Assembly (NCBI RefSeq): GCF_003334355.1
Contig: NZ_QOWP01000004.1
Reading direction: 5' to 3' (one strand)
From: Escherichia coli
Lineage (GTDB): Bacteria > Pseudomonadota > Gammaproteobacteria > Enterobacterales > Enterobacteriaceae
DNA length: 64,000 bases
The translations under genes were made by a program, and so were the position numbers. Of this stretch, positions 49,696 through 50,358 are shown piece after piece; positions within the stretch are counted from its first letter, which is position 1; each line of letters begins with the position of its first letter. Under the pieces are notes generated by a model. It worked only from the letters and a program-made list of their open reading frames with translations, searched no databases and had not been told where the DNA came from.

Positions 49696-50358
49696 ATGTT
49701 GCGCATTATCGATACAGAAACCTGCGGTTTGCAGGGAGGGATCGTTGAGATTGCCTCTGTTGATGTCATTGACGGAAAAATCGTCAACCCCATGAGCCAC
49801 CTGGTGCGCCCCGATCGTCCTATTAGTCCACAAGCGATGGCGATTCATCGCATCACCGAAGCCATGGTCGCCGATAAACCGTGGATTGAAGATGTGATCC
49901 CACACTATTACGGCAGTGAATGGTATGTCGCGCACAACGCCAGCTTTGACCGCCGCGTACTGCCTGAGATGCCCGGTGAGTGGATTTGCACCATGAAACT
50001 GGCCCGTCGCTTGTGGCCAGGAATCAAGTACAGCAATATGGCGTTATATAAAACACGCAAGCTCAATGTACAGACGCCGCCGGGCCTGCATCATCACCGC
50101 GCGTTGTATGACTGTTATATCACCGCCGCGTTGCTTATCGATATTATGAACACCTCCGGCTGGACGGCAGAACAGATGGCCGATATCACCGGACGTCCGT
50201 CGTTGATGACGACCTTCACCTTTGGCAAATACCGTGGCAAAGCGGTTTCCGACGTTGCCGAACGCGATCCGGGCTATCTGCGCTGGTTATTTAATAACCT
50301 GGACAGCATGAGCCCGGAGCTGCGTTTAACACTGAAACATTATCTGGAAAATACTTAA
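49696..50358 (+). CDS. exoX: Exodeoxyribonuclease X (DnaQ-like 3-5 exonuclease)
   Basis: ATG 49696 gives 220 aa ([15 protein letters not shown]...); DEDDh motifs. Confidence 0.93.

Follow-up and report, generated by a model that had tools for sequence, protein, structure and literature searches.

Overlapping stop codons of the convergent genes exoX and ptrB in Escherichia coli: a mechanical 4-nt overlap with probable Rho-dependent termination of read-through

How do two convergent transcripts come to an end when their genes leave no DNA between them? The question is raised by exoX and ptrB of Escherichia coli, which meet tail to tail in the window (the whole stretch of DNA that was analysed, 64 kb or 64,000 nt) and whose stop codons share bases, making the pair a clean textbook case of how spacer-less convergent genes end their transcripts; otherwise the locus is mostly a matter of bookkeeping. 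The reading that we favour, with a probability of about 80%, is that of a neutral, mechanically produced 4-nt overlap between two unrelated convergent housekeeping genes, in which read-through is ended by Rho and is tolerated rather than used. Three features define the junction:

49696-50358, plus strand: exoX, exodeoxyribonuclease X, 220 aa (RefSeq; NCBIfam NF005937 equivalog; PDB 4fzx)
50355-52415, minus strand: ptrB, oligopeptidase B, 686 aa (RefSeq; NCBIfam NF007511 equivalog)
50355-50358, both strands: TTAA tetramer with both stops inside, the exoX TAA at 50356-50358 (plus) and the ptrB TAA as the reverse complement of 50355-50357

The strand reads ...gaaaatacTTAAtccgc..., with TTAA at 50355-50358. 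That the two stops overlap within this tetramer, as the preliminary description had it, is confirmed by the sequence itself, by RefSeq and by full-length family matches, and the RefSeq annotations of a K-12 derivative and of MG1655 (exoX 1926120..1926782, ptrB 1926779..1928839) carry the same 4-nt overlap. The tail-to-tail arrangement of exoX (plus) and ptrB (minus), the tetramer holding both stops and the overlap of exactly 4 nt place the pair in the class defined by YTAR tetramers. The exoX stop is a TAR with a pyrimidine in front of it; the complementary strand therefore reads TAR one base off, in the ptrB frame, and this produces the overlap.

Could one of the two frames have been mis-called, such that there is no true overlap? 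Very long gene overlaps are, in general, often mispredictions (PMC2478687); for exoX/ptrB we found nothing in support of such a reading. The start of exoX does differ between calls (ATG 49696 in RefSeq, giving 220 aa, versus TTG 49642 for the longest ORF), whereas the position of a stop is set by the frame and is independent of the annotator. ExoX matches its equivalog model over residues 1-219 of 220 (463 bits, cut-off 202), the match to PDB 4fzx spanning residues 1-167, and PtrB matches over residues 1-686 of 686 (1602 bits, cut-off 1313); both proteins reach the last residue of these curated models, and neither stop is therefore an annotation artefact. Moreover, the C-terminal parts are 80-100% identical among 76 relatives, and not one of the 5,426 complete E. 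coli genomes lacks the junction region. With the full-length NCBIfam equivalog matches ruling it out, the chance of an artefact is practically nil.

Is an overlap of this kind unusual? [quoted passage not shown] When the MG1655 gene table was mapped onto the window, 12 convergent pairs were obtained, with gaps of -4, -4, 0, 3, 21, 45, 53, 55, 58, 119, 130 and 143 nt, i.e. a 4-nt overlap in two of the 12 and a gap of at most 3 nt in four. The second 4-nt TTAA overlap joins mntP (plus, ending at 29832) to rlmA (minus, starting at 29829) at 29829-29832; this pair is absent from the ExcludonFinder list and went unmentioned in the preliminary description. Next in tightness, yebW (plus) and pphA (minus) abut at 45888/45889 with a spacer of 0 (TAA|TTA). 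The pair yoaD (pdeD)/yoaE, which had been likened to exoX/ptrB, is indeed tightly convergent, yet it does not overlap: one gene ends at 23603 and the other starts at 23607, with a 3-nt spacer, tgc, between them. The exoX/ptrB overlap is thus ordinary, already catalogued and not rarer than expected, and 4-nt YTAR overlaps are background in scans of this kind.

What tight pairs lack is room. A hairpin flanked by A/T runs is obvious in five of the seven window pairs with spacers of 45-143 nt (yoaJ/yeaQ, yoaC/yoaH, yebQ/htpX, purT/eda and pykA/lpxM); of the other two, the yeaX/rnd spacer holds a long palindrome whose flanks show no clear A/T runs, and the yobH/kdgR spacer has no obvious hairpin. 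The tight convergent pairs of the window cannot hold a hairpin terminator between their genes, and at exoX/ptrB, where intergenic DNA is absent altogether, an intrinsic terminator between the genes is available to neither transcript.

For how long has the junction been without a spacer? Within the species, a 1.4-kb junction query found a match in every one of the 5,426 complete genomes of E. coli (95-100% identity), essentially at full length in 5,425 of them and at 100% identity in strain D2. The tetramer comes in three alleles, TTAA, TTAG (K-12) and CTAA (O157:H7). Exact 33-mers centred on 50358 carry TTAA in 1,657 genomes and TTAG in 2,235, and in the remaining ~1,534 genomes the 33-mer differs elsewhere. 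Both variable positions are doubly silent, A/G at 50358 exchanging TAA and TAG in exoX and GAT and GAC (Asp) in ptrB, and T/C at 50355 exchanging ACT and ACC (Thr) in exoX and TAA and TAG in ptrB. A natural loss of exoX was also encountered: in E. coli strain 40EC (NZ_CP070920.1, 1603-1827) the gene is annotated as a partial pseudogene, described in the record as partial in the middle of a contig, a deletion of ~430 bp having apparently taken its 5' part, and its TTAG junction with ptrB has stayed intact.

Beyond the species, a scan of one genome per species yielded 80 Enterobacteriaceae loci, in 76 of which both stops were readable and ptrB converged on exoX. The junction is tight in every one of the 76 (-19 to +38 nt), with modes at -4 (34 loci), -19 (21) and 0 (8); distances of +12 (3), +3 (2) and +6 (2) follow, and single loci lie at -15, -14, -10, +2, +10 and +38. 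Two records of the scan deserve a separate word. In Citrobacter amalonaticus AUH_CA_2023_1, ptrB-like sequence reaches the exoX stop, yet the ptrB reading frame seems to close 258 nt short of it, probably because the gene is frameshifted or a pseudogene, or because the assembly is in error. A record titled Chryseobacterium sp. 18061, a genus that is not an enterobacterium, has an ExoX that shares 90% identity with the E. coli protein and an Enterobacter-like junction, and is most likely mislabelled or contaminated.

The two commonest distances are tied together by one further element:

50340-50342, minus strand: backup in-frame stop of ptrB (TTA on the plus strand, TAA on the minus strand), five codons past the normal stop

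This triplet sits across the conserved His-Tyr codons of ExoX (CAY|TAT; CAT|TAT here), reads YTA at every locus with a distance of -4 or -19, and serves ptrB in the 21 relatives whose overlap measures 19 nt. An exoX ending in Y-TA-R overlaps ptrB by 4 nt; with an ending of TGA or G-TA-R, ptrB continues as far as the backup stop, which gives 19 nt. That a YTAR tetramer means a distance of -4 holds true for 73 of the 76 loci. For exoX, the next in-frame stop is absent for at least 34 codons. Because the pattern of YTAR and backup stop is mechanical across the 76 loci, we consider the absence of a spacer to be old and stable, and the exact overlap length to be a drifting, mechanical by-product of the stop codon used. 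The family-wide tightness of the junction could be read as a sign of selection; equally, the overlap makes rearrangement between exoX and ptrB harmful, from which passive conservation would follow.

Perhaps, then, the terminators lie inside the coding sequences themselves. Hairpins embedded in the partner gene (50365-50428 on the plus strand, ~50250-50310 on the minus strand) would stop or pause RNA polymerase, acting as an intrinsic or bidirectional terminator, and head-on collisions might complete termination. The 150 nt past each stop do fold slightly better than shuffled sequences (z = -2.74 on the plus strand, z = -2.50 on the minus strand), ~20% of E. coli convergent-overlap genes have predicted intrinsic terminators inside the partner (PMC2174442), and the collision model employs a hairpin element as its pause site (preprint 10.1101/2022.10.23.513370). 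Two structures come into question:

50365-50428, plus strand: inverted repeat GGCGTAGCG / CGCTACGCC, strain-specific, just past the exoX stop (fold z = -2.74)
49735-49721, minus strand: weak terminator-like hairpin and T-run from the consensus scan, within chance expectation

The consensus scan of 48900-52700, however, returned no intrinsic terminator at the junction, its two hits in 3.8 kb comparing with 4.1 expected. No U-tract follows the hairpins next to either stop, on the plus or on the minus strand, and the combination of a G+C-rich hairpin with a direct U-tract was not found within reach of a stop at the junction. Other Escherichia already lack the 5' arm of the plus-strand stem, and no conserved fold emerges past the junction: the consensus of 23 relatives with the same geometry amounts to -4.13 kcal/mol, with a covariation term of -0.12. 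Without a U-tract, conservation or covariation, the embedded hairpins were rejected as conserved terminator elements, and the inverted repeat at 50365-50428 was judged to be incidental. An Rfam scan of the whole window likewise revealed no RNA family at or near the junction. The collision model, for its part, requires appreciable polymerase traffic from each side. Finally, the defined 3' ends upstream of the overlap, which the preliminary description had named as the result that would contradict it, do not appear for either gene: the curated Term-seq 3' ends of PMC7815308 include none on either strand between MG1655 1925800 and 1927599, and low expression may be the reason. On balance, termination by embedded hairpins is unlikely.

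Some other signals in the region can be set aside or stand on their own. A promoter-like TTAACA-18-AATACT at 50326-50355, which ends at the tetramer, was rejected as a chance match (2 hits versus 5.0 expected in shuffles). Elsewhere in the window, the Rfam scan picked up SraC/RyeA (plus, 175 bits) and SdsR/RyeB (minus, 114 bits), the overlapping antisense pair at 46676-46820, an sRNA locus already known and flanked by pphA and yebY; an sroD sRNA match near rnd/fadD (115 bits, 11595-11680, minus); and a 'cspA thermoregulator' match in the cspC/yobF region (136 bits, 30729-31189, minus), where the cspA model catches the leader of a paralogue.

If not a hairpin, what ends the exoX transcript? Supplementary file 2 of Adams et al. 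(2021; PMC7815308) lists a Rho termination region at MG1655 1927253 (plus) that is classed as 'antisense ptrB'. Its upstream/downstream reads number 82/12 without and 140/129 with bicyclomycin (BCM), and its Rho score is 6.3 (p = 3.4e-10). These regions derive from DirectRNA-seq with and without bicyclomycin in one condition (LB, OD 0.5) and from 800-nt comparison windows, and their position is of low resolution. Since the K-12 and window regions are free of indels (99.4% identity), the coordinate maps to 50829 of the window, 471 nt past the exoX stop, where it falls within the following stretch:

50749-51008, plus strand: C-rich, G-poor stretch of read-through RNA, antisense to ptrB (C/G profile), containing the Rho-score peak at 50829

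Over 50749-50878 the C/G ratio amounts to 1.5-2.2, the highest in the 1 kb downstream of exoX, and its maximum at 50801-50878 (29 C, 13 G) is the most C-rich, G-poor part of that kilobase. The glycine codons of the PtrB catalytic motif GGSAGG (residues 530-535), read in antisense, make up the C-run at 50811-50828. No continuing frame is in use in the read-through RNA beyond the exoX stop. Plus-strand coverage thus drops inside antisense ptrB in a BCM-sensitive manner, the drug raising read-through from 12 to 129 reads across RNA that is untranslated, C-rich and G-poor, as expected of a Rho-dependent terminator; the BCM sensitivity of this signal also speaks against the embedded hairpins as its source.

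The favoured reading can now be spelt out for the plus strand. Rho loading on untranslated RNA after ribosome release is the established model of Rho action. By the same logic, the ribosome would leave at the exoX stop while RNA polymerase would go on into ptrB, antisense, and the untranslated RNA would expose the C-rich, G-poor tract ~400-650 nt downstream, where Rho terminates plus-strand transcription, as the bicyclomycin data show. We infer that Rho loads on the exoX read-through RNA after the ribosome has been released at the stop, and that the plus-strand reads over ptrB belong to the exoX transcription unit rather than to RNA started internally in antisense.

Further plus-strand Rho regions in the same tables lie at MG1655 1909444, 1930523 and 1939304 (~window 33020, 54099 and 62880), antisense to kdgR, yebG and lpxM, respectively (PMC7815308). 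Given these entries, Rho termination inside an opposite-strand gene is frequent in the window, and it extends to pairs that do have a spacer (pykA/lpxM). A separate region at MG1655 1925695 (plus; ~window 49271), with a Rho score of 2.97, lies inside yobB upstream of exoX (PMC7815308), which points to attenuation of holE/yobB transcription before it reaches exoX.

The situation on the minus strand is different in kind. The supplementary tables of PMC7815308 contain neither a minus-strand Rho region nor a 3' end for the ptrB transcript (antisense to exoX and yobB), for which low coverage could account, and both exoX and ptrB are absent from the SMRT-Cappable-seq supplements. The minus-strand RNA downstream of ptrB has a C/G ratio of 0.7-1.15 for ~550 nt, i.e. 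it is not C-rich; neither the tables nor the C/G profile thus mark a Rho terminator on this strand. The sole minus-strand terminator candidate is the hairpin at 49735-49721, located 620 nt from the junction and antisense to the ExoX exonuclease motif; going by its sequence, it is a candidate for the ptrB 3' end, and the Term-seq tables of Adams et al. (2021; PMC7815308) report no 3' end there. The ptrB transcript would presumably likewise read into antisense exoX and end by Rho and/or 3' decay.

Does the resulting overlap of transcripts serve a purpose? The preliminary description had argued that, for want of room for a terminator, the transcripts must either run into the opposite gene or end inside coding sequence. 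This follows from the geometry, and for the plus strand it is backed by two published data sets (PMC12288877, PMC7815308). Transcript overlap is forced upon exoX and ptrB because their coding sequences overlap, and the two mRNAs would share at least a short antisense overlap. In MG1655, exoX-ptrB is listed as a convergent excludon along with pdeD-yoaE, yebW-pphA and yeaO-yoaF (ExcludonFinder Table 1), among 165 convergent pairs the transcripts of which overlap in at least 50% of 58 RNA-seq sets (PMC12288877). As judged from the coding overlap and from this literature (PMC12288877, PMC7815308), the pair therefore shows the transcripts overlapping on opposite strands by which an excludon is recognized.

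It is conceivable that this overlap has been selected, transcription of one gene repressing the other by interference or by RNase III cleavage of a 3' dsRNA, with mutually exclusive ExoX and PtrB as the outcome. Besides the inclusion of the pair in the MG1655 excludome (PMC12288877), two observations fit this proposal: as a class, excludon pairs have higher synteny and fewer co-expressing single cells, and spacer-less convergent adjacency has been kept in the 76 Enterobacteriaceae loci. The ExcludonFinder criterion, however, is near-automatic once coding sequences overlap and both genes are expressed, the published single-cell statistics are class-level and none is specific to exoX-ptrB, and dsRNA validation proved unfeasible for convergent pairs in general. 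Nor does the junction look like a regulatory element, given that its geometry is not conserved (-19 to +38), that conserved RNA structure is absent, and that Rho curtails plus-strand read-through within ~0.5 kb, far from the ptrB 5' end. To our knowledge, there is no functional link between ExoX, a DNA exonuclease, and PtrB, a peptidase. We therefore hold a functional excludon to be very unlikely. More specific still is the notion that the tight junction has been maintained since the antisense overlap makes exoX and ptrB a reciprocal switch, in which a condition that induces one gene would damp the other and the Rho site, lying opposite the active-site codons of PtrB, would set the reach of interference; this we regard as highly improbable. 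Were mutual regulation of the two genes to prove true, it would add one more case to the already described excludon class.

We thus return to a neutral overlap with Rho-terminated read-through. Low expression would be expected for both genes, and the overlap would be tolerated rather than used. The wider meaning is that, without a spacer, termination would shift into the partner gene and would be carried out by Rho on untranslated read-through RNA. What is new here is locus-specific: the three doubly silent E. coli alleles, the backup-stop rule behind the -4 and -19 distances, and the Rho peak on the antisense of the PtrB glycines.

How does the locus compare with known systems? With the bidirectional intrinsic terminators found between convergent genes it shares the need to end two convergent transcripts; in contrast to them, exoX/ptrB lacks a spacer and, on both strands, such a hairpin followed by a U-tract. 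The Rho-dependent termination of antisense and read-through RNA in E. coli (Adams et al. 2021; PMC7815308) is the same in kind, with a BCM-sensitive region that lies in a C>G tract, 471 nt beyond the stop of exoX; neither rut mapping nor an in vitro termination assay for the exoX/ptrB site was found in the literature searched. Convergent excludons (PMC12288877) are likewise the same, the pair being listed by name and its transcripts necessarily overlapping, whereas classical excludons have long antisense overlaps and demonstrated reciprocal regulation, and in exoX-ptrB plus-strand read-through is held to ~0.5 kb by Rho. The 4-nt convergent overlaps of Lillo and Krakauer (2007; PMC2174442) form the very same class, with the other allowed tetramers TTAG, CTAA and CTAG occurring at the same site in other strains or species. 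The 'SCM' model of that work fits an origin of exoX/ptrB by stop-codon mutation and by switching between alternative stops; nothing of substance separates the pair from this class, to which the locus-specific -4/-19 backup-stop rule is now added.
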